From sequence record PQ871103.1: a stretch of 64,000 nucleotides of DNA; one strand, written 5' to 3'. Under the pieces are notes generated by a model, which was given only the letters and a program-made list of their open reading frames with translations, made no database searches and was not told the origin of the DNA. Each line of letters starts with the position of its first letter. Position 1 is the stretch's first letter. Position numbers and translations under genes: made by a program. Source of the DNA: Escherichia phage vB_Eco_ZCEC15. Shown piece after piece: positions 28,954-54,428 of this stretch.

Positions 28954-28956
28954 CAA

Positions 28957-28974
28957 TGGGGACCTTTTGGTCCC
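28957..28974 (+). terminator. Terminator hairpin GGGGACCTTTTGGTCCCC plus T-rich tract
   Basis: After gp54 stop, between convergent genes. Confidence 0.65.
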
Positions 28975-28981
28975 CATATTT

Positions 28982-29272
28982 TTATTTACGGAATGAAATA
29001 AAAGCAGCAACTGAAGCAACTAAACTGTCTTCAATATAAACTTCAATTTTTACCGGAGCTTCTGACTCAAATTTACCTGTTACTACACCTTGGAAAATGC
29101 TTTCAGTCTGTTCTGGCTTTGAAAAATTTTCAGAAGGAAAAATTCCGAACTTTTTATCTGTTCCAAAAATTTTGATAAATTCATCATAAACTGCTTCATT
29201 AAAAGCGTTATCAGCAGGAATAACGCCTTCAACTACAAGTTCTTGACCTAAAAAGCGTAAAGAAGATTTCAT
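28982..29272 (-). CDS. Hypothetical protein (alt.-3-like position)
   Basis: 96-aa ORF, GAGGA RBS, directly downstream of early promoter cassette. Confidence 0.6.
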   Translation of the reverse strand: MKSSLRFLGQELVVEGVIPADNAFNEAVYDEFIKIFGTDKKFGIFPSENFSKPEQTESIFQGVVTGKFESEAPVKIEVYIEDSLVASVAAFISFRK

Positions 29273-29279
29273 TTTGTGT

Positions 29280-29333
29280 TCCTCATGTTATGTCAGTAAG
29301 ATTATTATAACACAACACGAGGGACTTGTAAAC
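29280..29333 (-). promoter_or_regulatory. Early promoter-leader cassette, copy 1 (-35 GTTTAC, 17-nt spacer, -10 TATAAT, leader to GAGGA)
   Basis: - strand GTTTACAAGTCCCTCGTGTTGTGTTATAATAATCTTACTGACATAACATGAGGA; identical 54-mer at 44848..44901. Confidence 0.7.
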
Positions 29334-31390
29334 TACATCTTGAACTTTTTAGACATTTCGTTGATGTTAACCAAAGAAGCCAAGATTTGAGAAACTTCGT
29401 TTTCCTCTTCTTTTGATTCTTCTACAAGGAATTGATTAAACCCAGCCATTGGACGAACTTCGCCAGTTTCCATTAGATGATCGCCATCATATACCGATTC
29501 TTCTAATTGTTCAGAAGGAGGAACGATTGTGCCTTCGATTAGATACTTGTTATAAGCAGTTTCTTTCATCATGTACGTGCTTACTTTATTAATCTTCAAC
29601 AAAATTCCACGCGGTAGAATAACTTCAGCTTCTGATGGAAATCCTGATAAATGACCTGGAACGATAACTTTGATTCGCTCAGCCCCTTTAATTACCATAC
29701 CTACGCTAGCTTCAGCATCTTCATTAGCATATGCAGAATGACTACCCATATGCATTAAATCTTCAGCATCAACAGAACCTTCTCCTTCACCAGAAAATAC
29801 TGCGCCGGAATCATCTAGAGCCATATAGTTTTTACCATGCTCACCGAAGATATTTGGTTTAAGCGACGTGGATACGAAGTTCTTGAAATAGAACATTTTA
29901 TTTTCAATATTATGACGTAAAGTTTTAAAAGTAACTTCTTGCCCACGATAAAGCGTAGTTCCTGGAGGAAGAACTGATCCTTTGGCGAATGCAGAATCCA
30001 GCGTCTCGATGTGTTTAATAGCTCGTTCAATGTATTCTTCACGGGTAGAATCTGGTTTACCCAAGAGGAACGAGTTCATTTCAACATATGAATCTGCACA
30101 ATAATCTTCAATTACATCAGACTCAGCCTGAGTCAGTCCTTTTGGAGTTACTTCGGTGCTTGCATATTCATACGCCTGAGCAGCAGATGCATTAATCAAT
30201 TTATAAATGCCATTCATGACAAATCGAATAATAGCTACCTTTTCGTCTGGTGTGGCTTTAGAACCTTTAACTAAATCATTGATAATTTTCTTAATAACAT
30301 CAAAGCTATTAGAAATATTAATGTCAGCGAGATCGCTCAAAATTTTATCGGTTTTATAATCAAAAAATTCTTTATTCTTTAAATATTCTTGAGAACCTTG
30401 ATGTGTTATATCGCTCTGCAGTCTGATAGACGGATCACGTAAACGTGCATGGGCCAATGCAATATCATTTCGGAAGCTTTCTAGTTCATAATCGTTAGAT
30501 TTAAAACGAGAAGCACTTCTCATACCACCGATAGCTCCTTTGCTGAAGTTTGAACCAATCTGAATAACGCCAGAGTTCATTGATCCTTCTGCTTTATATA
30601 CCGGAACTTTAGATTCAAACTCTTGATATTTCTTGGCAGCGAAGCTATCACCCTGTAGCGAAGCATCGACAGTAGAATATTGAGCTTGCGCTGCTAATCG
30701 ACGACTAATTTTAGTTTTCTGAATAACAGCTTGATCCGTGCGCTTATCATTTTCTAAAGCAACAGAAGCAGCAACAGCAACAGCTTTAGGAACAGCATTA
30801 CCTGTTTTAACATCTACATAAACATCACCAACCTTTGATTCAACTTTTGTGAATAACTCAGTTGAAATAGGAGGTACACCTGGAATGTCTTCTAAATTGG
30901 CATTTTTACGGTAAACCATAATATATGCATACTTTTTATCGTAATCCCAGATTTCCTTTAAAAGAACATATCGACCTGCTCCTTTAGTACGTACTAAACG
31001 GTCAGCAATAACTTGCATCTGACGAGCAGCGCCATTTGTTTTACTTTTTAGTACGCGGAATAGGCATGCGTCAATTTTATACTGTTTCATTGTTTGAAGA
31101 GCAGTATCAAAAACCGCATTAATGACACCAATTGGATTTCCACCCAAGTTTTTAAGTTTAACTAATGATAGTTTCTCATTAACACCTATCATTACGATAT
31201 GCATCATTTTATCGCCTGGCTTAACGTTTTTATTTGTATCACCGCCAGAGGTGTATGTACAAAATCTAAATCCAGGAAGCACGCTTTCTTCACCGGCTTG
31301 AATAGCAAAAATTTGAGGTATTTTATGCTTAGGATTTAAGTTAACAACCGGCGCCGAAGCGCCGTCAAATAATTCTGTAATAAGTTCCAT
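29333..31390 (-). CDS. Alt-like ADP-ribosyltransferase paralogue
   Basis: 685 aa; R-S-E ART motif (YRGQ, FVSTS, EAEVILPRG); N-terminus near-identical to upstream paralogue. Confidence 0.8.
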   Translation of the reverse strand: MELITELFDGASAPVVNLNPKHKIPQIFAIQAGEESVLPGFRFCTYTSGGDTNKNVKPGDKMMHIVMIGVNEKLSLVKLKNLGGNPIGVINAVFDTALQTMKQYKIDACLFRVLKSKTNGAARQMQVIADRLVRTKGAGRYVLLKEIWDYDKKYAYIMVYRKNANLEDIPGVPPISTELFTKVESKVGDVYVDVKTGNAVPKAVAVAASVALENDKRTDQAVIQKTKISRRLAAQAQYSTVDASLQGDSFAAKKYQEFESKVPVYKAEGSMNSGVIQIGSNFSKGAIGGMRSASRFKSNDYELESFRNDIALAHARLRDPSIRLQSDITHQGSQEYLKNKEFFDYKTDKILSDLADINISNSFDVIKKIINDLVKGSKATPDEKVAIIRFVMNGIYKLINASAAQAYEYASTEVTPKGLTQAESDVIEDYCADSYVEMNSFLLGKPDSTREEYIERAIKHIETLDSAFAKGSVLPPGTTLYRGQEVTFKTLRHNIENKMFYFKNFVSTSLKPNIFGEHGKNYMALDDSGAVFSGEGEGSVDAEDLMHMGSHSAYANEDAEASVGMVIKGAERIKVIVPGHLSGFPSEAEVILPRGILLKINKVSTYMMKETAYNKYLIEGTIVPPSEQLEESVYDGDHLMETGEVRPMAGFNQFLVEESKEEENEVSQILASLVNINEMSKKFKM

Positions 31391-31393
31391 GAT

Positions 31394-33490
31394 TTATCCT
31401 TGAACGAACTTGTAAGGCATGTTTGCAATATCTATGCAAGATGCAATAATTCCAAGAGATGATTCTACTTTTTGTTTAACATTTGATGAAACAAATGTTG
31501 CAAAGTCAACTCTGTCTTCTATTTCAATATCATCTGTCATTGCAACTACTTCACCAGTTTCCATTAGACTGTCACCGTCATAAATTACCGATTCGGTGAG
31601 TTCTTCTGTAGTCATAACTTCAGCTTGAATGAGTTTTGTATTATTAGATGTTGTTCCGTCATTATTAGAAGCATCAGTTATTTTATTAACTTTGACCATC
31701 AATCCGCGCGGCAGAATAACTTCAGCTTCTGTTGCTATTCCGAGACTTCCTGGATATACAACATTAACTTTATGAGCTCCATCAATTGCCCATCCTATTT
31801 GAACTTTAACGTATTCAGGATTTTCTTTATACGCTCTTATTTCATTTGGATTAATAGTTATTCCTTCTTCATTTTTATCAACTGTTAATTCATTACGAGC
31901 TTCTGGTTCTAAAAGACCAATACCAGCATGCGTAATTCCAAAACGTCCAAAAATGATAGGAGTTAAAGAAGTAGATACAAAATTTCTGAAATAGAACACT
32001 TTATTTTTAACTAGTGCTTCGTATATAGGAGCAGTCATGCTTTGAGCACGATAAACTGTAATGCCTTCTGGTATACGGTCACCATTTTCAAAGGCTGAAT
32101 CTAAATTATTTATCGCAGATTCAATTTCTTTTTCACTCATTACCTCATATCGTTCTGGATTGTAGCGACCTAAAAGAAGATTATTGATGTCAGTATATCC
32201 TGAACCACAATACTCTCTAATGCCGCGCTTTTGTGATGGAGTATATTTAGAACCATCACGAGCAATAGTAATATCAATCATTGGACCTGCACCAATTCCA
32301 GAAAAACTATAAATCATTCTTTTGAGGAATTTAGTTTTTGCTGCGTTCCAGGAATTTTTAGTTATTTCTTCCCAGACTTCATCTGTCTGTCCTTTACGAG
32401 TTTTATTATGTTTATCAAGCCAGTTATCTTTATATTCTTCAAATAATTGATTAACAACTGTTGCGTATTTCTCTAAACATTTTATTGAAGTAGTTGGTTC
32501 ATTTTTAATCGCATTAAGAATTACATCTTTAATTTTTTCAGAAACTTCATTAACCTCACTTTTTGAAAAGAATTTATAGTCATAATGAAGTTCATCTGCA
32601 GTTCCTTCAGCAATAATTTTTGCTGCCTTAGTTTTAGAAGCTAATGAATTAATTCCAAGCTTCATTTCTTCTGCTTCGGGAATTAAAGGAGCTGTAGCAG
32701 GTTTATTGAAATTAGCTGCGGTAGATTCATACTTCTGGAATAATTCACTTTCAAATCTAGAAGATTCCAATGATTGACTTTGTGCAATTGCTCTACGGGA
32801 AATTTTAACTTTAACGATTACAGCTTGGTCAGAACGTTTATCATTTTCTAGTGCAATAGATGCTGCAATTGCCTCATTTTTAGTTACTTGAGCTCCAGTA
32901 TCTTTATTGATATAAACATCACCGACTTTCGATTCAACTTTAGTAAAGAGCTCGGTACTAATTTCTGGAACTCCTGGAATGTCTTCTAATGATACATTTT
33001 TGCGATGTATAAGAATATATGCATACTTTTTATCATAATCCCAGAGTTCCTTAAGAAGGACGTATCTGCCACCTGAGCGACTACGGATAAGTCTATCAGC
33101 AATAACTTGAATTTGTCGAGCTTGACCAGCAGTTTTAGACTTAAGAATACGGAGCATACAGGCATCAATTTTATACTGACGCATTGTTTGCATTGCAACA
33201 GTAAAAACTGAATTGATATAATTAATTGGGCTTGGACCAAGACCTTTCAATTTAGCAATTGAACCTTTAGCAGTTAATGTAAAAGGAACAATATGCATCA
33301 TTTTATCGCCCATCTTTAAATCACGATTAGTATCACCTCCAGATGTATAGGTACATAAACGAAAGCCTGGTTGTTCAATTGCATCATCAACATGAACTGA
33401 AAAAATTTGTGGTATTTTCTTCTTTGGATTTAAGTTTGTAATCGGAAGAGTAGTATCTTCGTCAAATAATTCTGTAATGAGTTCCATCAT
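31394..33490 (-). CDS. alt: Alt ADP-ribosyltransferase (virion-packaged, modifies host RNA polymerase)
   Basis: 698 aa; R-S-E ART motif (YRAQ, FVSTS, EAEVILPRG); late promoter upstream. Confidence 0.8.
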   Translation of the reverse strand: MMELITELFDEDTTLPITNLNPKKKIPQIFSVHVDDAIEQPGFRLCTYTSGGDTNRDLKMGDKMMHIVPFTLTAKGSIAKLKGLGPSPINYINSVFTVAMQTMRQYKIDACMLRILKSKTAGQARQIQVIADRLIRSRSGGRYVLLKELWDYDKKYAYILIHRKNVSLEDIPGVPEISTELFTKVESKVGDVYINKDTGAQVTKNEAIAASIALENDKRSDQAVIVKVKISRRAIAQSQSLESSRFESELFQKYESTAANFNKPATAPLIPEAEEMKLGINSLASKTKAAKIIAEGTADELHYDYKFFSKSEVNEVSEKIKDVILNAIKNEPTTSIKCLEKYATVVNQLFEEYKDNWLDKHNKTRKGQTDEVWEEITKNSWNAAKTKFLKRMIYSFSGIGAGPMIDITIARDGSKYTPSQKRGIREYCGSGYTDINNLLLGRYNPERYEVMSEKEIESAINNLDSAFENGDRIPEGITVYRAQSMTAPIYEALVKNKVFYFRNFVSTSLTPIIFGRFGITHAGIGLLEPEARNELTVDKNEEGITINPNEIRAYKENPEYVKVQIGWAIDGAHKVNVVYPGSLGIATEAEVILPRGLMVKVNKITDASNNDGTTSNNTKLIQAEVMTTEELTESVIYDGDSLMETGEVVAMTDDIEIEDRVDFATFVSSNVKQKVESSLGIIASCIDIANMPYKFVQG

Positions 33491-33510
33491 ATCCTCTCTA
33501 GTGTTTATTC

Positions 33511-33518
33511 TATTTATA
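33511..33518 (-). promoter_or_regulatory. Late promoter box TATAAATA (- strand) upstream of alt
   Basis: Exact motif about 21 nt upstream of alt ATG. Confidence 0.55.
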
Positions 33519-33524
33519 AAATTA

Positions 33525-33538
33525 AAGGCCCGAAGGCC
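33525..33538 (-). terminator. Hairpin GGCCTTCGGGCC
   Basis: Between 62-aa ORF and alt late promoter. Confidence 0.5.
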
Positions 33539-33539
33539 T

Positions 33540-33728
33540 TTAATAATCTATAGGTAAGAGAGTACGATATATTTCAAACTTTGGACCTTTTTCATAAGCA
33601 TCAAAAGTTTCTGTGAATTTATTATAAGCATATGCATCTATAAATTCAATCATAATTTGTGATACAGAAGTAGAAACATCTCCACCTTCTTTTTGAGCCA
33701 CGACAATTGTTTCTAAGTAAGCTTTCAT
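33540..33728 (-). CDS. Hypothetical protein
   Basis: 62-aa ORF overlapping ligase stop. Confidence 0.45.
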   Translation of the reverse strand: MKAYLETIVVAQKEGGDVSTSVSQIMIEFIDAYAYNKFTETFDAYEKGPKFEIYRTLLPIDY

Positions 33729-35185
33729 AGACCAGTTACCTCATGAAAATCACCAAATACATCCTCGAATGTATTAGCTTTAGTTTTATCTTCACGTAAA
33801 CGAATCGCAATCGGAAGAAATAATTTAACGTAATCAGTGCGGCCATCAGATTTTAACCAACCATTGCATTCACATTCTAGAATTTTTCCAATATAATAAT
33901 TTTGATTTTCCATAATGCGAGTACGGTCAAGTTCATGCGATTTTACACCGGCTTTATCTTTTAAGCCTGAACCAGCATTTACTTTAATTTTTCCACACTC
34001 TGATTCAAGAATAAATCCACCTGCTTTAGTAGGGTCTTTACGGTGAGGATAAATTCCTACAATTTTTAAATCAACATCAATTACTTCTTTAAATTTATAA
34101 AGATTTTTTGAACGAGCATTTTCCCACAATCCATCGGTATTTTTGAGAATAATACCTTCAAGACCTTGGTCAATATATTTTTTATAAATTACCTTAGCTT
34201 CATCTAGGTTATTTACTACCTGGTTTTCAATTAAAATTACTTTATCATATCCTGACGTCATTTGTTCTAATTTAGAAAAACGTACATCATATTTTAAACG
34301 AAACGCCGGAAGACCGTATATTTCTACCAACGGGACATAATCCCAGACCTGAAACTTCATGCATTTGGCTTCTTTTTCTGAAATAGTTCCCTTTAAAGAT
34401 TTATTGGCGATTCCATTAGAAGCAGTACGTGATTCAGCTACTTCGGCAAACTCTTTAACTTTACTATTTTCAGGAGCGTCAAAAAGAAAATCTAGGCCTT
34501 CTGGCTCCTTTTCAACTTGCTCGTGGTATACCAATTCGCCATCAATTAACACACCTTCTGGATGAATCTGGCGGGCTTCTGCAGTCATTTTGATTAACTC
34601 TTCCTTAAGAAGATCTAATCCTAGATATTCATTACCAGCTCGTGATAAAAGACGAACATCATCTAATTCATCACCTCGGACTTCAGCAAAACACCGAGCT
34701 CCATCTGCTTTTAACTGTGCAAAGGCTGGAAATTTGATATTCTTACTAATGCCTTTTTCATCATAAGAACTTGCCAGCATTTGAGGTTGTTCAGGAATTA
34801 AACCTGGCCAAACTTTATTTGCAATAGATACCGAAGCACCACATTCAAGGTCTCGCATCATAACTCGACGCAAAACTTCAACATCATCCTTTTTACCATC
34901 AGTGATATATCCAGTTAATTCCTCAATTGCAGCATTTCCAGTCAATTTCCGAGTAGCTAACGTGAATTCAATGAAGTCAAGCATATCGGTAATAGTCAGC
35001 ATTCCAAAACTCTGGGTAGAAATACCAGGTTTAGGCCATTTCTTGATATAATACTGTAACCCACGAGAATAAGTCAGACGATATACTCTTTTAAGCAATT
35101 CATTATCTTTATTCTTTTCAAGAATTGCTTGCTTCTGCTTAGTTGATCCAATAGATGCTATTTCATTCAGAATTTTAAGAATCAT
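33725..35185 (-). CDS. 30: ATP-dependent DNA ligase gp30
   Basis: 486 aa; adenylation motif KADGARC (KxDG). Confidence 0.95.
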   Translation of the reverse strand: MILKILNEIASIGSTKQKQAILEKNKDNELLKRVYRLTYSRGLQYYIKKWPKPGISTQSFGMLTITDMLDFIEFTLATRKLTGNAAIEELTGYITDGKKDDVEVLRRVMMRDLECGASVSIANKVWPGLIPEQPQMLASSYDEKGISKNIKFPAFAQLKADGARCFAEVRGDELDDVRLLSRAGNEYLGLDLLKEELIKMTAEARQIHPEGVLIDGELVYHEQVEKEPEGLDFLFDAPENSKVKEFAEVAESRTASNGIANKSLKGTISEKEAKCMKFQVWDYVPLVEIYGLPAFRLKYDVRFSKLEQMTSGYDKVILIENQVVNNLDEAKVIYKKYIDQGLEGIILKNTDGLWENARSKNLYKFKEVIDVDLKIVGIYPHRKDPTKAGGFILESECGKIKVNAGSGLKDKAGVKSHELDRTRIMENQNYYIGKILECECNGWLKSDGRTDYVKLFLPIAIRLREDKTKANTFEDVFGDFHEVTGL

Positions 35186-35451
35186 TGCTCATCCTTCAAG
35201 GTTTGGTTTACAGCTCTATTATAAATCAATTCATCATTAAGCTCAGGCAAAGACCTATGATATGTAGTTCTAACTTTATTTCCTTGCATCCAGTGCTTAA
35301 CGTAAATGAAACCTTGCTCTACACATTTTTTAAAAATTCGTTCGTCTTTTTGAGCTCGGAATTCTGGATTGCATCTAAAAAATTGATTTACGTGACCGTA
35401 ATCACGTGTAGTATTACCTTCATTTTCATAAATAGTGTGAACGACAAACAT
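35182..35451 (-). CDS. Hypothetical protein (30.1-like)
   Basis: 89-aa ORF in ligase operon. Confidence 0.55.
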   Translation of the reverse strand: MFVVHTIYENEGNTTRDYGHVNQFFRCNPEFRAQKDERIFKKCVEQGFIYVKHWMQGNKVRTTYHRSLPELNDELIYNRAVNQTLKDEQ

Positions 35452-36290
35452 TAGAATGCTCCTTGGAAAATATTATCACCGCTAGTAGGTCTATTATACA
35501 AATACTCTATGCCACCAGGTTTAATATAGTTCCATGTCTGAAATGGATGTGTCTGATATGGATGATATAGATGATTATAAGGATTAAATCCAGGCGTTCT
35601 CCAGGTAGTGTTCCAAGGAAAAGAATCGTTTTTAACCATCTTCTCAATTAAATCTTTTATAGCTTTTTCACTATCAAAACTTTCTTTATTTTCCTTCGGC
35701 GAAAAAAGCTTATTTTCTACATCATTCCATGTATAAACTCGCTGAGCAGTTTTTGGAATATTGTCACGCTCTCCTCGAGCCATCCAATAAACAGGAACAT
35801 TTAATATTTCACTCGCATGATCGCAGTGATGAGCGAGATCGTCAATATAACAAATTACGTTATATTTCTCTTTTGCCTTTTTAAACAACTCTTCTTTTGA
35901 AGAATCATGACCACACATCATTACTTCTGAGAAGGCACCAGGAAAAAGAGCATTCAAATTAAATTGACGATTCAACAGAGCGTCAATAGAATCACCCAAT
36001 GCTGTGACAGCTACAAAATTATAATCTTCTTTTAATTTGTTAATTACACACAGTGCATCTTTATATGGAGACAAGTAACGAATAAAATCTGATCGATTAT
36101 ATTTTTCAATTAGCTTGACACCAAGTTCTTCATCACAATTAAAGAGTTTACCTGGAGAAATAAATTTCTCATCTTGGATCATTTTTAAAATATGTTCTAA
36201 CGGAAGATTATATTTCTGAGCAAAATAAGGAAGACCTGATTGCCAGCTTAAACATACTCCATCAATATCAGTTAAAATAGTAGGCTTCAT
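35451..36290 (-). CDS. HAD-superfamily hydrolase-like protein (30.2-like)
   Basis: 279 aa; N-terminal LTDIDGV (DxDGx HAD motif I). Confidence 0.6.
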   Translation of the reverse strand: MKPTILTDIDGVCLSWQSGLPYFAQKYNLPLEHILKMIQDEKFISPGKLFNCDEELGVKLIEKYNRSDFIRYLSPYKDALCVINKLKEDYNFVAVTALGDSIDALLNRQFNLNALFPGAFSEVMMCGHDSSKEELFKKAKEKYNVICYIDDLAHHCDHASEILNVPVYWMARGERDNIPKTAQRVYTWNDVENKLFSPKENKESFDSEKAIKDLIEKMVKNDSFPWNTTWRTPGFNPYNHLYHPYQTHPFQTWNYIKPGGIEYLYNRPTSGDNIFQGAF

Positions 36291-36745
36291 AGAGAGTCTC
36301 TTAATAGGTTTAACACATCAATAAATTCAGCTTCGGTTAGTATTGTATCATCTTTTGTTAGACCACTAGCCATGCTGTGCTTCAAAACTTTTCCTTTCGA
36401 GGCTTGTAATGCATCGCGAAAGCCCTTGTTTTGGAACGCTGCTTCAAAATATGCATTTGTGTATAATTCTTTCCACGCTGGAGAGTATCTTGAAAACGGA
36501 ACTCCAAGCCAGAAGAGGGTCCCACGGTCCTGAGCTCTAGCATAAGACCTTCCAGCTTGTTGGGCGGCAAGCCCGGATAACCCAAATATACGTCTTTGCT
36601 GTTCAACATTTTTCACCTTACATCCTTGGAGGAATCCTTCGAGACCTCCAAATTGAATGTCATCCATAACGAAAGGCCATTGGGCGAAATTACTTAATGC
36701 ACATGATGGCCATTTAAAATTGCTTCTAATCTCTAACTCAGACAT
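36287..36745 (-). CDS. NADAR/YbiA (DUF1768)-like protein (30.3-like)
   Basis: 152 aa; LSNF...PF...D..F.S.E...Q..K and C-terminal segments resemble NADAR fold; by eye only. Confidence 0.5.
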   Translation of the reverse strand: MSELEIRSNFKWPSCALSNFAQWPFVMDDIQFGGLEGFLQGCKVKNVEQQRRIFGLSGLAAQQAGRSYARAQDRGTLFWLGVPFSRYSPAWKELYTNAYFEAAFQNKGFRDALQASKGKVLKHSMASGLTKDDTILTEAEFIDVLNLLRDSL

Positions 36746-36953
36746 CTTTAATACTTATAATTTCAATATCAGCCCAATGACCGTAACTTGGTAAACGGTC
36801 TTCAATAGATAATCCGCCATCATATTTAAGCATTTTAATTGTCATAATATATGGCTCTAAATGGTCTTCAGTGAGCGGAGAGACATCAGTCACACGATAA
36901 GTAACTTCGACCATTTCCGTGCCCAGTAATTTCTTGATTAATTTCTTAAACAT
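36738..36953 (-). CDS. Hypothetical protein
   Basis: 71-aa ORF. Confidence 0.5.
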   Translation of the reverse strand: MFKKLIKKLLGTEMVEVTYRVTDVSPLTEDHLEPYIMTIKMLKYDGGLSIEDRLPSYGHWADIEIISIKDV

Positions 36954-36957
36954 TTTA

Positions 36958-37245
36958 TTAGAACCTCATCTGAAAACCGTGCGATTTAACATTACCGCCG
37001 CCAATATCAGAAATGTTAATTTCACGCGCAATTGAAGGGTCAATGTCAATTTCACGATTGAGTTTAGTGATAGCTAAAGTATCGCGGCCATTTACAGTAC
37101 GGAACTCTAAAGGACATACTACATTAACGTAGTTTTTAATCGATTCGCTGGTAGGTTGCAAATGAGCAGGAAGGTCTTTAGGCGCCTTAGAGAAAACCAC
37201 TTCACAGAAATTTTTGCGGGTGTCAAAATAAGTAGTCATAAACAT
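36958..37245 (-). CDS. Hypothetical protein
   Basis: 95-aa ORF; GAGGAAA RBS. Confidence 0.55.
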   Translation of the reverse strand: MFMTTYFDTRKNFCEVVFSKAPKDLPAHLQPTSESIKNYVNVVCPLEFRTVNGRDTLAITKLNREIDIDPSIAREINISDIGGGNVKSHGFQMRF

Positions 37246-37286
37246 AGTATTTTCCTCAGTAAGGGGCCGAAGCCCCTCATTTTATT

Positions 37287-37664
37287 TTAAATATCAAATT
37301 CGTTAAGAACTACATCAAAGATTGCTTCAAGATGCTCAGGTTTAGCTCTGTTACTCAGAATATGACGAATCCAAGTTTTAACCAGAAGCTTGCGATTAAC
37401 GCCATTCCAGCAAGGATGAGTCCCTAAATCGCGTTGACGAAAATCATCATCCAAAGCGATTTTGAAGTTGGAACCTTCCATTGTGATTGAAACCGTGATG
37501 CCATTTTCAAATCGCATATAAACGTAGTTAGGAGTCATATACTGTTCAATTTCGCATACTGATCCATTTTGATGTTTCCAAAGGCAAATAGTATCAATAG
37601 AACCTGCAATACCATTAGAAACATATTTACGTTCAAAGTTGATGTAGTTCATTTTATTCTCCAA
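37287..37664 (-). CDS. Hypothetical protein
   Basis: 125-aa ORF. Confidence 0.55.
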   Translation of the reverse strand: MENKMNYINFERKYVSNGIAGSIDTICLWKHQNGSVCEIEQYMTPNYVYMRFENGITVSITMEGSNFKIALDDDFRQRDLGTHPCWNGVNRKLLVKTWIRHILSNRAKPEHLEAIFDVVLNEFDI

Positions 37665-37719
37665 GATGTTTAATTGCGGTACAGGTATATAATATCATAT
37701 CCTGTACCAAAGTAAACAA

Positions 37720-38052
37720 TTATTTTACTACTTTCCAGTGCTGCATGTCAAGTTTACCAACTTTTTTCATCTTCTCAATTAAGCGTTCGGCACGTTGGCG
37801 AGCTGTAACATAATACCATTCACCCAATTCATTTTGTTCAATTTTTCCAACGATTACCGTATTCAATTCATAAATCCAACCAGTAAAGAAATTATGAACT
37901 TGAATTGTAAAGGTGAAATCTGTTCCCATACCTTCTGTTGTTTCTACTTCAATAATATCACCTTCAACTGCCATTAAGAACCACATAGTTTCATCATATT
38001 TACCGTTGAAGCATTTAGTTTTAACTGCAGCGTTCAGATTAATTGTTTTCAT
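37720..38052 (-). CDS. Hypothetical protein
   Basis: 110-aa ORF; AAGGAGAA RBS. Confidence 0.55.
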   Translation of the reverse strand: MKTINLNAAVKTKCFNGKYDETMWFLMAVEGDIIEVETTEGMGTDFTFTIQVHNFFTGWIYELNTVIVGKIEQNELGEWYYVTARQRAERLIEKMKKVGKLDMQHWKVVK

Positions 38053-38079
38053 TTTATTCTCCTTTGTTTGTGTAAGATA

Positions 38080-38109
38080 ATACTATCACAAAGGAACCAT
38101 ACTGTAAAC
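38080..38109 (-). promoter_or_regulatory. Putative early promoter (GTTTAC-N18-TAGTAT)
   Basis: - strand GTTTACagtatggttcctttgtgaTAGTAT upstream of the 110-aa ORF. Confidence 0.4.
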
Positions 38110-38138
38110 AACTTTGTGCAGTCTTTGGAAAATAAAAA

Positions 38139-38158
38139 AGGACTCCCGAAGGAGTCCT
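38139..38158 (-). terminator. Terminator hairpin AGGACTCCTTCGGGAGTCCT followed by T-run on - strand
   Basis: Perfect 8-bp stem then TTTTTTATTTT. Confidence 0.7.
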
Positions 38159-38162
38159 CAAC

Positions 38163-38381
38163 TTATGCTTTCTGCTTACCAAAACGAGAAGCATCATCTC
38201 GAAGAACCGCACGTGCTCGGCGCATGATCTTCTCAACAGTTTGATTGATACGAGAGTTCGACCCACGCTTGTAACCAGCGCGTTTAGAATCACCAACTTT
38301 CTTTTCAACTGCTTTCTTTGCTTTAGCTTGTTTTGCCATTATAAATTCTCTTTTAAATGAAAATGCAGGACTTATTGGCAT
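38163..38381 (-). CDS. Small basic protein (30.9-like position); start may be internal Met (MAKQAK...)
   Basis: 72-aa Lys/Arg-rich ORF. Confidence 0.45.
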   Translation of the reverse strand: MPISPAFSFKREFIMAKQAKAKKAVEKKVGDSKRAGYKRGSNSRINQTVEKIMRRARAVLRDDASRFGKQKA

Positions 38382-38533
38382 TGCCTGCGCAAGCCCTCAA
38401 GGGGAACATAGGTTTTGAATATTTACCGACAGGATAACCATAAACCTCGTCAACATTCAAGAGGTACACCGTAAAACAAAGTTCGACGGCTCCTCGATTT
38501 TAGCTCACACTAAGGCAGTGAATCTCCAATAAA

Positions 38534-38782
38534 TTACTTCAGTGTTACCACAAAGTGACGAACTGCTTTTCGTGCAGCAGAAGCCAGTGGCTTAGCATAT
38601 TTAAGTTCATCTTTTTCCTGAAGCTCAGCAGCTAATGCAGTTTGAGCAGGATTCAGATGTTTGAAATAACGCAGGATTTCAAGAGCTTCGGCTTCAACAT
38701 CAATAGATGCGCCATAGTTTTCGTGACCATTATTCCATGCGTTTCGTTGCAGTTCAAGAGCGTGTTGTAATTGTTTAATCAT
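38534..38782 (-). CDS. rIII: rIII lysis-inhibition accessory protein
   Basis: 82 aa; position immediately downstream of gene 31. Confidence 0.7.
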   Translation of the reverse strand: MIKQLQHALELQRNAWNNGHENYGASIDVEAEALEILRYFKHLNPAQTALAAELQEKDELKYAKPLASAARKAVRHFVVTLK

Positions 38783-38908
38783 TTAAAAATTCTCGTTAGA
38801 GATTAAAACTCGGTAGTCACGTTCTTCTGAATTTCATCTTCTTTCGACAGATCTCTCAGTTGTAGACTACCACATAGAATTGAAACCCAATTCATATTAT
38901 TATTTATA

Positions 38909-39244
38909 TCACTTATAAAGACACGGAATAGCTTTATAGTGACAGGTAACGAATTTTTGTTTAATTTCTTTTGGCTGCTTAAGACCCAGAGCTACAAAAG
39001 GATGCGGAACGTTTCGAATTTGACCAACTGGAAGAGAAGTCAAATCACCAACTTCGCAGAAACCTTCAGGAACATCAGGACCAACGGAGTGAACTACACA
39101 CAGTTCAGGAACTTCACCTTGAACACGTTTACCGATAATAAGTCCTGATTCTGTAACTTCTTCATCACCGGCTTGTGCAGGTTCAGAAACTAAAATAACA
39201 TATTCACCGACAGCACGAATTGGTAGCTGTTGTACTTCAGACAT
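38909..39244 (-). CDS. 31: gp31 co-chaperonin (GroES analogue)
   Basis: 111 aa as T4 gp31; MotA-type promoter upstream. Confidence 0.9.
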
Positions 39245-39274
39245 CGTTTTTCCTTTTTGTTAACAGATGAATTA

Positions 39275-39302
39275 ATAATAACAAATAATTCTTAAAGCAT
39301 TT
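39275..39302 (-). promoter_or_regulatory. Middle promoter for gene 31: MotA box AAATGCTTTA, 12-nt spacer, -10 TATTAT
   Basis: - strand AAATGCTTTAagaattatttgtTATTAT 30 nt upstream of gp31 ATG. Confidence 0.6.
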
Positions 39303-39609
39303 ATTTACCAATAAATTGAAGCAAATGCTCAACTTTCATACCATTAACGGAAATCAATTTGTCAATAGAAAAACCTCGCCATGCACCAAGCTCAACATCA
39401 AATACTGGAACCATATCAGTAGATTCTTTCCGAGTAGATTCAGTCAATTTACCGGTTTGCATGGTTGGCATAAAATCGGCATCACGAGTACCTTTCATAG
39501 TACGAATAGTACCATCAGACTTTTCAAAAACTATGTTTGAAACCCCCATGGACAATTTAGTTTTCAAAATTTCACGAATTGCTACTTTTTGTTCAGTTGT
39601 CAGTTTCAT
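39301..39609 (-). CDS. Hypothetical protein (31.1-like)
   Basis: 102-aa ORF. Confidence 0.55.
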   Translation of the reverse strand: MKLTTEQKVAIREILKTKLSMGVSNIVFEKSDGTIRTMKGTRDADFMPTMQTGKLTESTRKESTDMVPVFDVELGAWRGFSIDKLISVNGMKVEHLLQFIGK

Positions 39610-39846
39610 TTATTTACCTATTACAGTTTTAATATGGGTTGTTCCACGTTCTTTAAGAGTGGAAAGCAATTTTTGGCATTTTTCTAAATCAGATTTCCAA
39701 CTATACGGCCTATCAATACTAGTCCAATCAGTTTTATAATACTGTTTCCATTTAGAGAAAAAATACTTCTTATACTCTACAGCAAATGAAATGTTCTCAT
39801 TAGAATAAGAACTAATTGCTGTGAGCTGTACCAAACGAAATTTCAT
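39610..39846 (-). CDS. Hypothetical protein (31.2-like)
   Basis: 78-aa ORF. Confidence 0.5.
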   Translation of the reverse strand: MKFRLVQLTAISSYSNENISFAVEYKKYFFSKWKQYYKTDWTSIDRPYSWKSDLEKCQKLLSTLKERGTTHIKTVIGK

Positions 39847-40427
39847 TATTCACCACAGAATTCGTTGATGTTTTCCCAGTTTAACTTATTCAAGTTTTTC
39901 TTAGGAACATTAAACACTTCAATACCTGCATTTCGCAGAATATCATCCCAGCCAGGTTTATTTTTATCGTATGTTTCGCAATAAACCAGCTTTTTAATAC
40001 CAGATTGAGCTATCGCTTTTGCACAATCTGGGCAAGGAGAAAGTGTTACATACATAGTAGCACCTTCAATTGAAGAACCGTTTCGTGCAGCAAACAAAAT
40101 CGCATTTAGTTCAGCATGAATTTCATTTTTAGACGACCATTCAGAGTGCGCGCTACGGTGTTCTTTCGCCAAGACAAAACGATCAGTTGAACCAAATGAT
40201 ACGCATTCAGGCTTATGACCTTGAATGATAGTATGTTTAGGCTTATTCAGCAACCAACCTTGCTCAGCAGCATAATCACAGCAATTCACACCACCTGCAG
40301 GTGAACCATTATATCCGGTAGAAATAATACGTCCATTCTTTTCAATTACTGCTCCTACCTTCCAGGAGCAACATTTTGATTCTTGCGATACTAAATATGC
40401 AATTTGAAGTACTGTACTCGCTTTCAT
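39846..40427 (-). CDS. cd: dCMP deaminase
   Basis: 193 aa; zinc-binding HAE...PCPDC deaminase motifs. Confidence 0.95.
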   Translation of the reverse strand: MKASTVLQIAYLVSQESKCCSWKVGAVIEKNGRIISTGYNGSPAGGVNCCDYAAEQGWLLNKPKHTIIQGHKPECVSFGSTDRFVLAKEHRSAHSEWSSKNEIHAELNAILFAARNGSSIEGATMYVTLSPCPDCAKAIAQSGIKKLVYCETYDKNKPGWDDILRNAGIEVFNVPKKNLNKLNWENINEFCGE

Positions 40428-40762
40428 TTCATAATCACCAAATAAGCAGATTTAGCAGTTTCAACACGATAAATTTCGTGACGAAGTTTAGTTATACTTT
40501 TAATAACAGAACTAATTATATTCTGCCCATCTTTAAAGCGGTTTTTCTTATCAATAAAAATTGCGCCAACCATCTTTTTGTGAAGCTCAACTGGATACTT
40601 CGTCACAATAATAGCATCATACACAGAAGGATGAATACTATTCACTAGAGTATCATTCATTAAAGTTATTCTAATAAACTGTGCTGTTTCAGAGTCAAGC
40701 GCTCTATGATCGCCAGTATCATTTTCAAGACAATTATCAATTATATCAGTTAAATTCATCAT
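40424..40762 (-). CDS. Hypothetical protein (cd.1-like)
   Basis: 112-aa ORF. Confidence 0.55.
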   Translation of the reverse strand: MMNLTDIIDNCLENDTGDHRALDSETAQFIRITLMNDTLVNSIHPSVYDAIIVTKYPVELHKKMVGAIFIDKKNRFKDGQNIISSVIKSITKLRHEIYRVETAKSAYLVIMK

Positions 40763-40995
40763 AGTACGCCATACACCCTTTGTGCTTCAACTAATCCATC
40801 AAAATCCAATTTGAGATGTGTTATTTGGTCACCATCACCTGGATTCACAATTACTAATACTGAACGAGGAGTTTCGGTAATAACGCGAACCGATGTTTCT
40901 GGAAATCGTTCAGAAACCTTATTTACCAATTCCTGAGCAAATAGTTTAACTTTTTCTTGGAATTCTTTAACAGTAATTGGTTTTTCGCTTAGCAT
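40759..40995 (-). CDS. Hypothetical protein
   Basis: 78-aa ORF. Confidence 0.5.
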   Translation of the reverse strand: MLSEKPITVKEFQEKVKLFAQELVNKVSERFPETSVRVITETPRSVLVIVNPGDGDQITHLKLDFDGLVEAQRVYGVL

Positions 40996-41516
40996 GTTGA
41001 TCCTAGCTCCTTACTTTCAACGTTTTTAACTAATTTGACAGAAACTAATTCAGCATCTCGAGTAATCATTACCGGGCCTTCTTCATACTCTTCAAGATAT
41101 TCTAGAGCTTTCTTTTTAGCTTCTTCCTTCGTATCAGTTTGAGCATAGATATAAAACATGCAACCAGTAATACCTACTACTTTCCACTTAATTTCTTTAT
41201 CAGTTTTAATTTCAAATTTACTGACAGAATCATCTTTTTGAACTTCTTCGAAAAAAGAATATTCTAACATATAAGCAATTGAAAATAACGGGCTAACTTT
41301 ATAAGATTCGCCCATTACATCAACAGCTTTATACCAGCAGTCATCAATTTCGCGTTTAATGCTAATAACATTTTTCGCAGGATCTATTTTTACTTTAAAT
41401 GAATTTTCCCCAATAAACTGGGCAATTCGTTTATTAGCCCCGCAAGTTTCATTAAAAATATCTTTATACCCAGCTTTAAAGCGATAAACCTTATCTTCTT
41501 CAAACCATTCGCTCAT
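40989..41516 (-). CDS. Hypothetical protein
   Basis: 175-aa ORF; early promoter upstream. Confidence 0.55.
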   Translation of the reverse strand: MSEWFEEDKVYRFKAGYKDIFNETCGANKRIAQFIGENSFKVKIDPAKNVISIKREIDDCWYKAVDVMGESYKVSPLFSIAYMLEYSFFEEVQKDDSVSKFEIKTDKEIKWKVVGITGCMFYIYAQTDTKEEAKKKALEYLEEYEEGPVMITRDAELVSVKLVKNVESKELGSTC

Positions 41517-41546
41517 TTCAATTTCCTCATTTGTTTTGGTAGAGCT

Positions 41547-41576
41547 ATAATATCACAACTCTACCGTAAAGTAAAC
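41547..41576 (-). promoter_or_regulatory. Putative early promoter (GTTTAC-N18-TATTAT) with -10 inside inverted repeat GGTAGAG...CTCTACC
   Basis: - strand GTTTACtttacggtagagttgtgaTATTAT. Confidence 0.45.
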
Positions 41577-41578
41577 TG

Positions 41579-41860
41579 TTAAATTGCTTTGAATTCTGAT
41601 GTCTGTGATTCAAAGCGAATATCGCCTTTAATGACTAGCTCAGCATCAAGACCGAATACGACAATGATATGCGCAGAACCTGGATACAGCGTAATGGCAA
41701 TAGAATCCACCTGGTCTGGAAGCAAAGTGTTCAATACATGAGTCACTTGAGCATGAATTCGAAGCTCGGCTGCGTTATCAAGCTTTTCAAACATATTATT
41801 AGCGATAATTTGACTAAACACTACTTCTACGATTTTAGAATAAGTCGGAAACATATTCAC
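41579..41860 (-). CDS. Hypothetical protein
   Basis: 93-aa ORF. Confidence 0.5.
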   Translation of the reverse strand: MNMFPTYSKIVEVVFSQIIANNMFEKLDNAAELRIHAQVTHVLNTLLPDQVDSIAITLYPGSAHIIVVFGLDAELVIKGDIRFESQTSEFKAI

Positions 41861-42049
41861 CCCACATAATTTTCTTCAAGCCAATTAATAACATCCAACG
41901 CATTATCAAAAGTTGAACCATCTACTTTGTCTTCTGTTTCATAATCAAGAACATCTAAGCCTACTCTTCCATCAACAATAGGCCATAAACAAAATAGATA
42001 TTTCTTTTCTTTTTCAATTTTATCACAAAGCCGATAAATCTTTTCTATG

Positions 42050-42057
<8 letters not shown>
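41857..42057 (-). CDS. Hypothetical protein
   Basis: 66-aa ORF. Confidence 0.5.
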
Positions 42058-43472
<1,415 letters not shown>

Positions 43473-43475
43473 TTA

Positions 43476-43700
43476 TTATTTCTCAACCAATGATTGAATA
43501 TAATCATGCAGGTCTTTAGATGCTTTACCCCACTTATTTTGGTATTCATTTTTAAGATTAGCACGTGATTGAGCTAATAAAACATCATTAGTTGGAGGTA
43601 AAGATTCTAATCGCTGAATCTGGCGTCCGTAAATCATTGCAGCCATCTCGGATTCATAAATCAATCCTTTGAGATGTTCAAATTGATGCCATGAAATCAT
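43476..43700 (-). CDS. Hypothetical protein
   Basis: 74-aa ORF. Confidence 0.5.
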   Translation of the reverse strand: MISWHQFEHLKGLIYESEMAAMIYGRQIQRLESLPPTNDVLLAQSRANLKNEYQNKWGKASKDLHDYIQSLVEK

Positions 43701-43996
43701 TTACATTTATCCTCTTTTAACTCTTGACGATAATAACATATCATAGTTTTCTGATCATGTACATATCGTTTTACATCATTAAGCCAAATACGAAATTCCT
43801 GGGAATCTTCGAATGGCATACCGACCCAAGCTTTACCATCAATAACTTTAACTTGCCAGGATAGTTTAGCTTCATCATATGACTTTATTTGTACTGGCCA
43901 ATTAGGATGAACTGTTTCTTTCTTTACTTCTAGAGGCTTTGTCGAACAACCAACTAGAAGACCAATAGATAATATTACTGCTGATAGTTTAATCAT
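43697..43996 (-). CDS. Putative lipoprotein
   Basis: 99 aa; N-terminal signal MIKLSAVILSIGLLVGC with lipobox LVGC. Confidence 0.6.
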   Translation of the reverse strand: MIKLSAVILSIGLLVGCSTKPLEVKKETVHPNWPVQIKSYDEAKLSWQVKVIDGKAWVGMPFEDSQEFRIWLNDVKRYVHDQKTMICYYRQELKEDKCK

Positions 43997-44346
43997 TTAG
44001 AAAGGTCCTGGATGTCTTCTGCGAACTTGTTGAAGGAGTTGTTGATTTGTTTTTCAACCAATCCTGGCTTATGAGCCACCACATCCGCCTTCTTTGCGTC
44101 TTTGCGCAGTTTTTCATTTTCACGCTCAATAGCAGCAATTGCCTCACGATTTTTATTATTCATCGCATCAATATAATTATACTGAATTCGCAAATTATTT
44201 AATGCTAAAGCGTTTTCATTGGCCGTTTTTGTAATTTCTACAACAGACGTTTCTAATCTTTCAATTTTATTTTTTAAAATTAAAGAAGTTCCGCCCAATG
44301 CAATTACAATTAATAGCAAACCTGTTGTCGTATTACTTAATTGCAT
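43993..44346 (-). CDS. Putative membrane-anchored coiled-coil protein
   Basis: 117 aa; hydrophobic segment LLLIVIALGGTSLIL then charged helical region. Confidence 0.55.
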   Translation of the reverse strand: MQLSNTTTGLLLIVIALGGTSLILKNKIERLETSVVEITKTANENALALNNLRIQYNYIDAMNNKNREAIAAIERENEKLRKDAKKADVVAHKPGLVEKQINNSFNKFAEDIQDLSK

Positions 44347-44840
44347 AAAGTTTTAATAACCTCTACAATATCGTCTTGAGAAAGACCGTTAATTAAAATA
44401 TGATGTTCAGCCGGAGATTTAGAAATTTTAAAGCATGCCTCAACATCTTCTGCCATATCTGATGCACTACGATTTGGATTACTAATTCCAAGACGATGTT
44501 TTCCCGTTAAAGGATTAACGATGATATAGCATTTACAGTTGTTAATATGAACATTAGGTTGAGTCTGATTAATGAACACATCACAATCATATTTCGCAAG
44601 CTGATTTTCTAAAAAGACTTTCATCTCCTCAACCGCATCAGGAAGCATATCACGGGCTTGCTCAAGACGACGATTTCGATATTCTTTAATGGTCGTTTTC
44701 CGCTTGACTTGCTTAGCTAAATCTTTCTTAAGATCGGTGATATATCCAACTCGACGATTTCCTTTAAATACAGAAATCCCATCTGTAGTATCACCGTATG
44801 CTTCAACGACCATCTCAGTAGTAATAAGCTGCAAATCCAT
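44337..44840 (-). CDS. alc: Alc-like protein (host transcription shut-off), assignment by size and position
   Basis: 167 aa; between pseT-distal ORFs and rnlA; early promoter immediately upstream. Confidence 0.6.
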   Translation of the reverse strand: MDLQLITTEMVVEAYGDTTDGISVFKGNRRVGYITDLKKDLAKQVKRKTTIKEYRNRRLEQARDMLPDAVEEMKVFLENQLAKYDCDVFINQTQPNVHINNCKCYIIVNPLTGKHRLGISNPNRSASDMAEDVEACFKISKSPAEHHILINGLSQDDIVEVIKTLCN

Positions 44841-44847
44841 TATAAAG

Positions 44848-44901
44848 TCCTCATGTTATGTCAGTAAGATTATTATAACACAACACGAGGGACTTGTAAA
44901 C
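44848..44901 (-). promoter_or_regulatory. Early promoter-leader cassette, copy 2 (identical to 29280..29333)
   Basis: Exact 54-nt identity; starts 1 nt after rnlA stop, ends at GAGGA 7 nt before the alc-like ATG. Confidence 0.7.
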
Positions 44902-44904
44902 AGC

Positions 44905-46492
<1,588 letters not shown>

Positions 46493-54398: not shown

Positions 54399-54428
54399 AT
54401 AGTATCACACTACTACCCTTCTGTAAAC
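54399..54428 (-). promoter_or_regulatory. Putative early promoter (GTTTAC-N18-TACTAT) with -10 inside inverted repeat
   Basis: - strand GTTTACagaagggtagtagtgtgaTACTAT. Confidence 0.4.

Follow-up and report, generated by a model that had tools for sequence, protein, structure and literature searches.

A 54-nt cassette with an early promoter inside a predicted RNA hairpin, present twice in a T4-like Escherichia phage and apparently kept alike by gene conversion

Two kinds of regulatory element known from T4-like phages combine a promoter with an RNA hairpin. PeSL cassettes consist of early promoters and stem-loops, are repeated through T4-like genomes and recombine with each other (Arbiol et al. 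2010, PMC2839356; Comeau et al. 2014, PMC4122927), and in the T4 genes e, soc, 49 and I-TevI a late promoter lies inside a hairpin that sequesters the ribosome-binding site (RBS) (PMC3014915). Here we describe a cassette that resembles both in Escherichia phage vB_Eco_ZCEC15 (sequence record PQ871103.1). The window, that is the whole stretch of 64,000 nt analysed, carries two identical copies of this 54-nt cassette, one between an Alt-like paralogue (alt.-2) and alt.-3 (copy A) and the other between rnlA and alc (copy B). The explanation that we favour, with a probability of roughly 0.6, is that each copy is a PeSL-type early promoter combined with an RNA hairpin, and that the pair is as old as its genus and is kept alike by gene conversion. 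The new part is modest: known kinds of cassette and gate, with an early-promoter twist.

The window has just two exact matches to the 54-mer GTTTACAAGTCCCTCGTGTTGTGTTATAATAATCTTACTGACATAACATGAGGA, both on the minus strand: 29280-29333 (copy A) and 44848-44901 (copy B). A first-pass annotation of this DNA had claimed an exact repeat in the same orientation, and the repeat finder agrees, returning the same pair (family D7) with 100% identity and a 15,568-nt spacing. No further match with up to three mismatches is present elsewhere in the window, and 100 dinucleotide-preserving shuffles of the window contained none, so that the pair is not expected by chance. Homology ends sharply, as the 150 nt on each side of the copies are 26-31% identical between A and B, which is the random level. 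We take the copies to be a true homologous duplicate, more than two promoters matching one consensus, because they are 100% alike over 54 nt (92% when the six differing bases after the repeat are counted), as against 55-76% among unrelated early-promoter cassettes.

The cassette essentially fills the intergenic space at both sites. Copy A overlaps the upstream gene by one base, its first G being the last base of the TAG stop codon of the 685-aa Alt-like paralogue (ORF 29333-31390); copy B starts 3 nt (GCT) past the TAA stop of rnlA. The claim that each copy starts right after a stop codon is nearly right. The GAGGA at the end of both copies was correctly placed by the annotation, with exactly 7 nt between it and the ATG of the next ORF, which has 96 aa after copy A (29272) and 167 aa after copy B (44840). 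An ATG at repeat positions 48-50 also opens a mini-ORF of four to five codons, MRNTK in copy A (29270-29286, minus strand) and MRTL in copy B (44838-44854, minus strand), each followed by a stop that overlaps the start codon of the main gene in both contexts, although the 7 nt after the repeat differ. It has no Shine-Dalgarno (SD) sequence ahead of it, and the arrangement may be a coincidence.

A scan for the sigma-70 consensus found TTTACA-17-TATAAT in both copies, with 11 of 12 positions matching and TG before the -10 element. The -35 hexamer TTTACA of copy A lies at 29327-29332 (minus strand, like all cassette features below), 17 nt from the -10 hexamer, and can be read in the T4 early form GTTTAC, to which the upstream TAG contributes its final G; the extended -10 element, TGTTATAAT, is at 29304-29312. 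Copy B has its -35 hexamer TTTACA at 44895-44900 and the same extended -10 element, TGTTATAAT, at 44872-44880. The -10 hexamer occupies cassette positions 25-30, and the usual distance of 7 nt past it puts the predicted transcription start (+1) at about position 37, near 29297 in copy A and 44865 in copy B. Examined for an UP element, the DNA upstream of -35 proved to be coding sequence that is moderately A-rich, differs between the copies and lies outside the repeat. The annotation of phage SA21RB has a T4-type early promoter at each of the two sites, and the T4 copies are 94-96% identical to those of the window. The identity of the cassettes as early promoters is well supported; their activity in this phage is deduced from sequence.

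The block was rightly described in the earlier annotation as a single unit, since it holds the -35, the extended -10, the predicted start site and the SD. As DNA, it would act as a strong T4-class early promoter for the host sigma-70 RNA polymerase (GTTTACA -35, 17-nt spacer, TGn-extended TATAAT) and would yield a short-leader immediate-early mRNA of the next gene, alt.-3 or alc. In T4, alc and alt.-3 belong to the early-RNA/early-protein class and rnlA to the early-RNA/late-protein class, while alt.-1 and alt.-2 have middle RNA and alt is late (PMC9697503). The cassette marks a temporal-class boundary at both sites, because in T4 the genes just upstream of alc and alt.-3 fall into later classes than these two.

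The description as promoter, leader and RBS is correct as far as it goes but overlooks a 15-bp hairpin that pairs an anti-SD with the SD. In the sense RNA, positions 12-26 (CCTCGTGTTGTGTTA) pair with positions 39-53 (TGACATAACATGAGG) through 12 Watson-Crick and three G.U pairs. The 54-mer folds at -20.4 kcal/mol (z -5.4), with none of 200 shuffles equally stable; inclusion of the flanks leaves this helix dominant, as it is in both copies of T4. For the antisense strand the energy is only -11.4 kcal/mol, since the G.U pairs turn into C.A mismatches. At the base of the stem, CCUC of the promoter spacer pairs with GAGG of the SD; most of the -10, together with the predicted start site, falls in the loop (positions 27-38). 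In copy A, the 5' arm CCTCGTGTTGTGTTA, with the anti-SD CCUC, lies at 29308-29322, upstream of the predicted start; the loop TAATAATCTTAC, with part of the -10 and the predicted +1, is at 29296-29307, and the 3' arm TGACATAACATGAGG at 29281-29295, its SD GAGG occupying 29281-29284. The corresponding arms of copy B are at 44876-44890 (5', anti-SD) and 44849-44863 (3', with GAGG at 44849-44852). The conservation of promoter, spacer, leader and RBS as one block is explained by this structure, in which the spacer forms one arm of an RNA helix and the leader the other. A permissive Rfam search assigned no family to either cassette; its two sub-threshold matches elsewhere are probably due to chance.

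The cassette pair belongs to the PeSL class. It shares with the published cassettes a sigma-70-type early promoter (T4/PST form TTTACW-N17-TAYWAT), a stem-loop overlapping the promoter, here with a 15-bp stem spanning the -10, and the position of an intergenic unit between the upstream stop codon and the downstream SD and ATG; like them it is repeated in the genome, beside non-essential genes, and its copies could plausibly undergo homologous recombination with each other (PMC2839356, PMC4122927). It differs in that no AT-rich tract separates the stop codon from the -35, which begins 0 nt past the stop in copy A and 3 nt past it in copy B, that the long stem reaches the SD and that no T-run comes after the stem. 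Moreover, the copies, 15.6 kb apart, bracket essential genes, and what is seen is homogenisation of their sequences rather than gene shuffling or mini-circles.

Folding of longer RNAs indicates what such a structure might do. Partition-function calculations on read-through RNA put the cost of opening GAGG at 10.9 kcal/mol for copy A and 9.7 kcal/mol for copy B, with SD unpaired probabilities of 0.00-0.03 (0.00 for copy A), as against 4.0 kcal/mol (A) and 0.26 kcal/mol (B) in RNA started at the cassette itself. Because the predicted start site sits in the loop, the cassette's own transcripts would be without the 5' arm, leaving the RBS open. According to these models, read-through transcripts should bury the RBS and cassette-initiated ones should expose it. 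On RNA arriving from upstream, positions 12-26 would pair with positions 39-53 and the anti-SD CCUC would mask the SD GAGG; the RNAs closed in this way would be the late alt/alt.-2 mRNA at copy A and the nrd-denA-rnlA mRNA at copy B, and the synthesis of Alt.-3 and Alc would be confined to the period in which the early promoters fire. Each cassette is probably also a translational insulator against read-through transcripts, a role predicted from the structure and backed by the comparison with other genera and by solid precedent in T4.

The analogy with T4 e, soc, 49 and I-TevI is close. In both cases, the SD lies in a helix whose 5' strand precedes the start of the nested promoter, and long transcripts are predicted to be untranslatable and promoter-proximal ones translatable. 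The nested promoter is late in those T4 genes, making translation late-only, whereas here it is early and the expected translation, predicted from sequence, early-only. A literature search found no paper describing promoter-in-hairpin gating of alc or alt.-3. The full proposal of an early-only gate, mirroring the late-only gate of the T4 lysozyme type and with its copies kept in step by conversion near the minimum homology length, is a tentative one, whose chances we put somewhat below even. If it is true, many PeSL stem-loops may be translational insulators and not terminators. It would also give a simple testable rule for genes that are strictly immediate-early in T4-like phages despite heavy read-through.

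Ribosomes finishing the upstream gene could, on the contrary, melt the stem, so that alt.-3 or alc would be translated from the read-through mRNA on condition that the upstream gene is translated. Coupling by hairpin melting is a known principle, and the upstream stop codons are only 0-3 nt before the cassette. Nevertheless, we find such translational coupling highly unlikely: the stem, beginning at position 12, starts 11-16 nt past the stops, at or beyond the distance that a terminating ribosome is expected to cover, about 61 nt separate the stops from the downstream ATG, and in T4 the rnlA protein is late and the Alc protein early (PMC9697503).

Within the genus Tequatrovirus, to which the window belongs, 98.2% of stem cells are paired among 22 distinct sequences. 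Pairing-compatible changes comprise G16A (G.U to A-U), G40A (U.G to U-A), C15T and C42T (both to G.U) and the double change C15T+G50A. Stronger comparative support than this within-genus covariation is offered by the hairpins of other genera, which were folded separately because their stems lie in different registers and are misaligned in a joint alignment. The rnlA-alc spacer is always 57-63 nt long and starts with GTTTAC or TTTACA beside the stop codon (GTGTAC in Yersinia phage MHG19). Counting Tequatrovirus, eight of the nine genera or lineages sampled have a promoter-spanning hairpin in this spacer, with a stem of different sequence in each. The hairpins are those of Karamvirus (stem CUCCAUUUGGUU / AACCAAAUGGAG, z -7.1), Moonvirus (-23.4 kcal/mol, z -6.3), Tegunavirus (-22.9 kcal/mol, z -6.0), MHG19 (-21.5 kcal/mol, z -4.5), Dhakavirus (stem CUCCUCAU / AUGAGGAG, z -4.3), Marfavirus (-12.0 kcal/mol, z -2.85) and Klebsiella phage Roth01 (-12.5 kcal/mol, z -2.3). 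The SD is within the stem in six of the nine, Tequatrovirus again included.

Several results tell against the explanation given above. Copy A retains partial SD pairing in its own transcript, with the 4.0 kcal/mol needed to open it. Covariation within Tequatrovirus is not significant, there being one double change and 89 of 500 shuffles that reach the observed score, and three variants break a stem pair (C12A, T19C, and G50A with C15 in SA21RB). The stem of Tegunavirus and MHG19 ends 4-5 nt before the SD, and folding of the Mosigvirus rnlA-alc spacer yielded no significant hairpin; consequently, SD sequestration is not the sole conserved role of the structure. At the alt.-3 site of other genera, the early promoter abuts the Alt stop and the spacer forms a different, small hairpin; in Kanagawavirus a helix at this site buries the AUG instead.

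The stems of Tegunavirus and MHG19, which end before the SD, would suit another role, in which the hairpin is mainly a transcriptional boundary that terminates, attenuates or 3'-stabilises the upstream message (rnlA; alt/alt.-2) and overlaps the SD by coincidence. PeSL stem-loops were reported as terminators in a reporter assay (PMC2839356), and three further early promoters of the window, at 54428, 41576 and 37717, lie in hairpins that exclude the SD. However, no T-run follows either copy (copy A continues with ACACAAAATG), and the terminator scan calls nothing at either cassette. The anti-SD/SD pairing at the alc site, found in six of nine genera or lineages in stems that differ in sequence, argues against an incidental overlap, as does the large predicted cost of opening the SD, about 10 kcal/mol. 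We therefore consider a mainly transcriptional role unlikely.

Further early promoters of the window, at 54428, 41576, 38109 and 37717, likewise lie in hairpins. The promoters at 54399-54428, 41547-41576 and 37689-37717 (all minus strand) are of the GTTTAC type, with a 10-16-bp hairpin that covers the -10 and ends before the SD, and are typical PeSL-like units. The site at 38050-38109 (minus strand) precedes a 110-aa ORF (37720-38052) homologous to gp30.8 and has the early promoter GTTTAC-18-TAGTAT inside a hairpin whose 5' arm, UCCUUUGUG, pairs with CAAAGGA of the leader and so covers the SD AAGGAG; in folding models it is a second candidate for early-only gating logic. At 38124-38207 (minus strand), Rfam gave a match to the Rhizobiales sRNA Atu_C8 that stays below threshold (31.4 bits, gathering score 50, E 0.007) and is probably due to chance.

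The first-pass annotation took the exact identity of the copies in an otherwise diverged context as a sign of recent copying. The identity is real and the flanks are indeed unrelated, but the distribution of the pair contradicts a recent origin. The BLASTN comparison that the annotation had proposed gave matches in 499 of 50,697 phage records at 997 places, which is two per genome. All are T4-like phages, mostly of Escherichia and Shigella, and include T4, where the copies precede alc and alt.-3. A pattern scan of IMG/VR provided only eight loci from five contigs; GenBank phage records were sampled in its place, and both copies were extracted from 17 genomes for comparison. The 54-nt boundaries are identical in all 17. 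We infer that the duplication is as old as the genus Tequatrovirus, because the pair with the same boundaries is found in 499 records including T4.

That one copy was freshly pasted into its second site within the lineage of this phage would account for two copies that are exactly identical in this genome. The same two sites are, however, occupied with the same boundaries in T4 and essentially all Tequatrovirus records, and other genera, too, have an early promoter ahead of alt.-3 that abuts the stop of Alt. Such a paste is scarcely credible, and a recent duplication as the origin of the pair is ruled out by the distribution over 499 records together with the comparison of 17 genomes. The identity is better taken as a sign of continuing homogenisation, with a recent conversion event likely to have made the copies identical again. 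Phage vB_EcoM-G28 (NC_054916.1) has a third copy of the cassette, which stems from a 351-bp tandem duplication of the 3' end of rnlA, the cassette and the first approximately 190 nt of alc. We rejected a cassette-mediated rearrangement as its source, the junction being inside alc/rnlA coding sequence.

Variation among the 17 genomes points to concerted evolution of the two copies, which we regard as well supported by the sequence pattern. T4 has TATAGTAGT in both copies and the window TATAATAAT in both. This window, PP01 and G28 each have A29 together with A32 in their two copies. Rare variants likewise recur in both copies of a single genome: C12A in ZCEC14, T33A in BF15, T19C in UGKSEcP2 and G16A in RB51. 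The copies are identical in 7 of the 17 genomes and differ within a genome by 1.35 nt on average, whereas orthologous copies differ between genomes by 2.97 nt (A-A) and 2.09 nt (B-B). Shuffling of the copy pairing never gave a mean as low as that observed (permutation p <= 1e-5), in a test that ignores relatedness among the genomes, which counts against the strength of this result. No site is fixed between copy A and copy B.

Gene conversion between the copies appears to be the most economical explanation of this pattern, because rare variants are shared, the copies resemble each other within genomes and the cassette is no more conserved than its flanks. Non-reciprocal recombination of this kind would keep the pair alike, and exactly identical here. 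Patches of about 50 bp are reported to suffice for recombination in T4 (Singer et al. 1982, as cited in PMC2839356). Three mosaic genomes, EPIMAM01, F13076 and GBLB0003, have copies that differ at four sites, as is expected if conversion is only occasional. As in concerted evolution of dispersed short repeats in general, paralogues within a genome are closer than orthologues and variants are common to both copies; the difference is that this repeat has only 54 bp, near the reported minimum homology, and that the exchange is read from sequence. The pair offers a clean natural system in which to measure gene conversion between dispersed repeats of such short length, in a phage that recombines very actively.

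Strong purifying selection on promoter and leader, with no exchange between the copies, would be an alternative source of their likeness. The cassette is multifunctional, and 45 of 64 aligned columns (the 54-mer plus 10 nt) are invariant in the sample. Yet orthologous cassettes diverge by 4.2-6.3%, at least as much as the coding DNA beside them (2.4-4.4%). Seven variable sites have the derived base in both copies of one genome, which under selection alone would require the same mutation to arise in parallel time after time, and again no site is fixed between A and B. This alternative seems to us very improbable.

Only in Tequatrovirus is the same cassette found at both sites, which implies that in the ancestor of the genus the cassette of one site replaced that of the other. 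There is a hint in the architecture that an alc-type cassette took the place of the one at alt.-3, while sequence identities do not decide the direction. We rejected the likeness of copies A and B in Mosigvirus (72%) as evidence of paralogy, since it falls within the 55-76% background of unrelated early promoters. The alt.-3 cassette of Dhakavirus FB and the alc cassette of Mosigvirus AV118 are 82% identical, above that background. There are thus hints in the sequences that cassettes may have been exchanged between the two sites in other lineages too.

The annotation also suggested that the direct repeats could mediate deletion of the segment between them. This is mechanically possible, and a crossover would remove alc, pseT, cd, gene 31, rIII, gene 30, alt and the Alt paralogue. 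A viable deletion phage is nevertheless unlikely, because the interval holds gene 30 (DNA ligase) and gene 31 (gp31), both of which are essential in T4. The only record found with that junction is PP500713.1 (Escherichia phage EC.W15-4, 152,184 bp, labelled complete), which is without approximately 15.6 kb from alc to alt.-2, DNA ligase and gp31 included. This record starts and ends exactly at the 54-mer, with copy A at positions 1-54 and copy B at 152131-152184. It is most likely an assembly break at the shared 54-mer node and not a real deletion, because a k = 55 de Bruijn assembly yields such ends when two loci share a 54-mer node. De Bruijn assemblies with a short k can therefore break at the exact 54-mer, which has apparently deprived at least one GenBank 'complete genome' of 15.6 kb.

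The window is Tequatrovirus DNA, with EPIMAM01, UGKSEcP2, Kha5h and HY01 as close relatives. Copy A serves alt.-3 (28982-29272, minus strand, 96 aa; Pfam DUF5498 = T4 Alt.-3, E 1e-64), and copy B serves alc (44337-44840, minus strand, 167 aa; Pfam ALC, E 1e-91). Alt.-3 is non-essential and uncharacterised, and C-terminal extensions of it let T4 escape the CmdTAC defence system (PMC11618068). Upstream of copy B lies rnlA (RNA ligase 1; 44905-46029, minus strand), identified by Pfam, whose start was set from the T4 length of 374 aa; the ORF as listed begins at GTG 46065. Pfam identifies DNA ligase, Cpn10 (gp31), dCMP deaminase and polynucleotide kinase (PNK, pseT) between the copies. The gene upstream of copy A, alt.-2 (29333-31390, minus strand; Pfam ADP-ribosyltransferase), is one of two full-length tandem Alt-like ADP-ribosyltransferase genes, the other being at 31394-33490 (minus strand, 698 aa). 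Their DNA contains segments 72-94% identical at a spacing of about 2.1 kb (families D1, D5, D6, D14 and D20), and T4 keeps only fragments of the second gene (alt.-1, alt.-2).

A T4-type late promoter motif, TATAAATA, stands about 20 nt before alt at 33511-33518 (minus strand), where a late promoter is also annotated in phage SA21RB. It is likely to be the source of late read-through transcripts crossing copy A; read-through is expected there because of this motif and because no terminator intervenes until past alt.-3. The first terminator-like element downstream of the motif is a bidirectional hairpin at 28956-28977. It forms a perfect GC-rich stem of 9 bp (ATGGGGACC-TTTT-GGTCCCCAT) between the convergent alt.-3 and gene 54 and has a terminator score on both strands. 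At 33511-33545 (minus strand), another terminator-like hairpin (AAAGGCCTTCGGGCCTTT with a T-run) is followed directly by the late motif TATAAATA before alt, a compact terminator-plus-promoter boundary of the late class.

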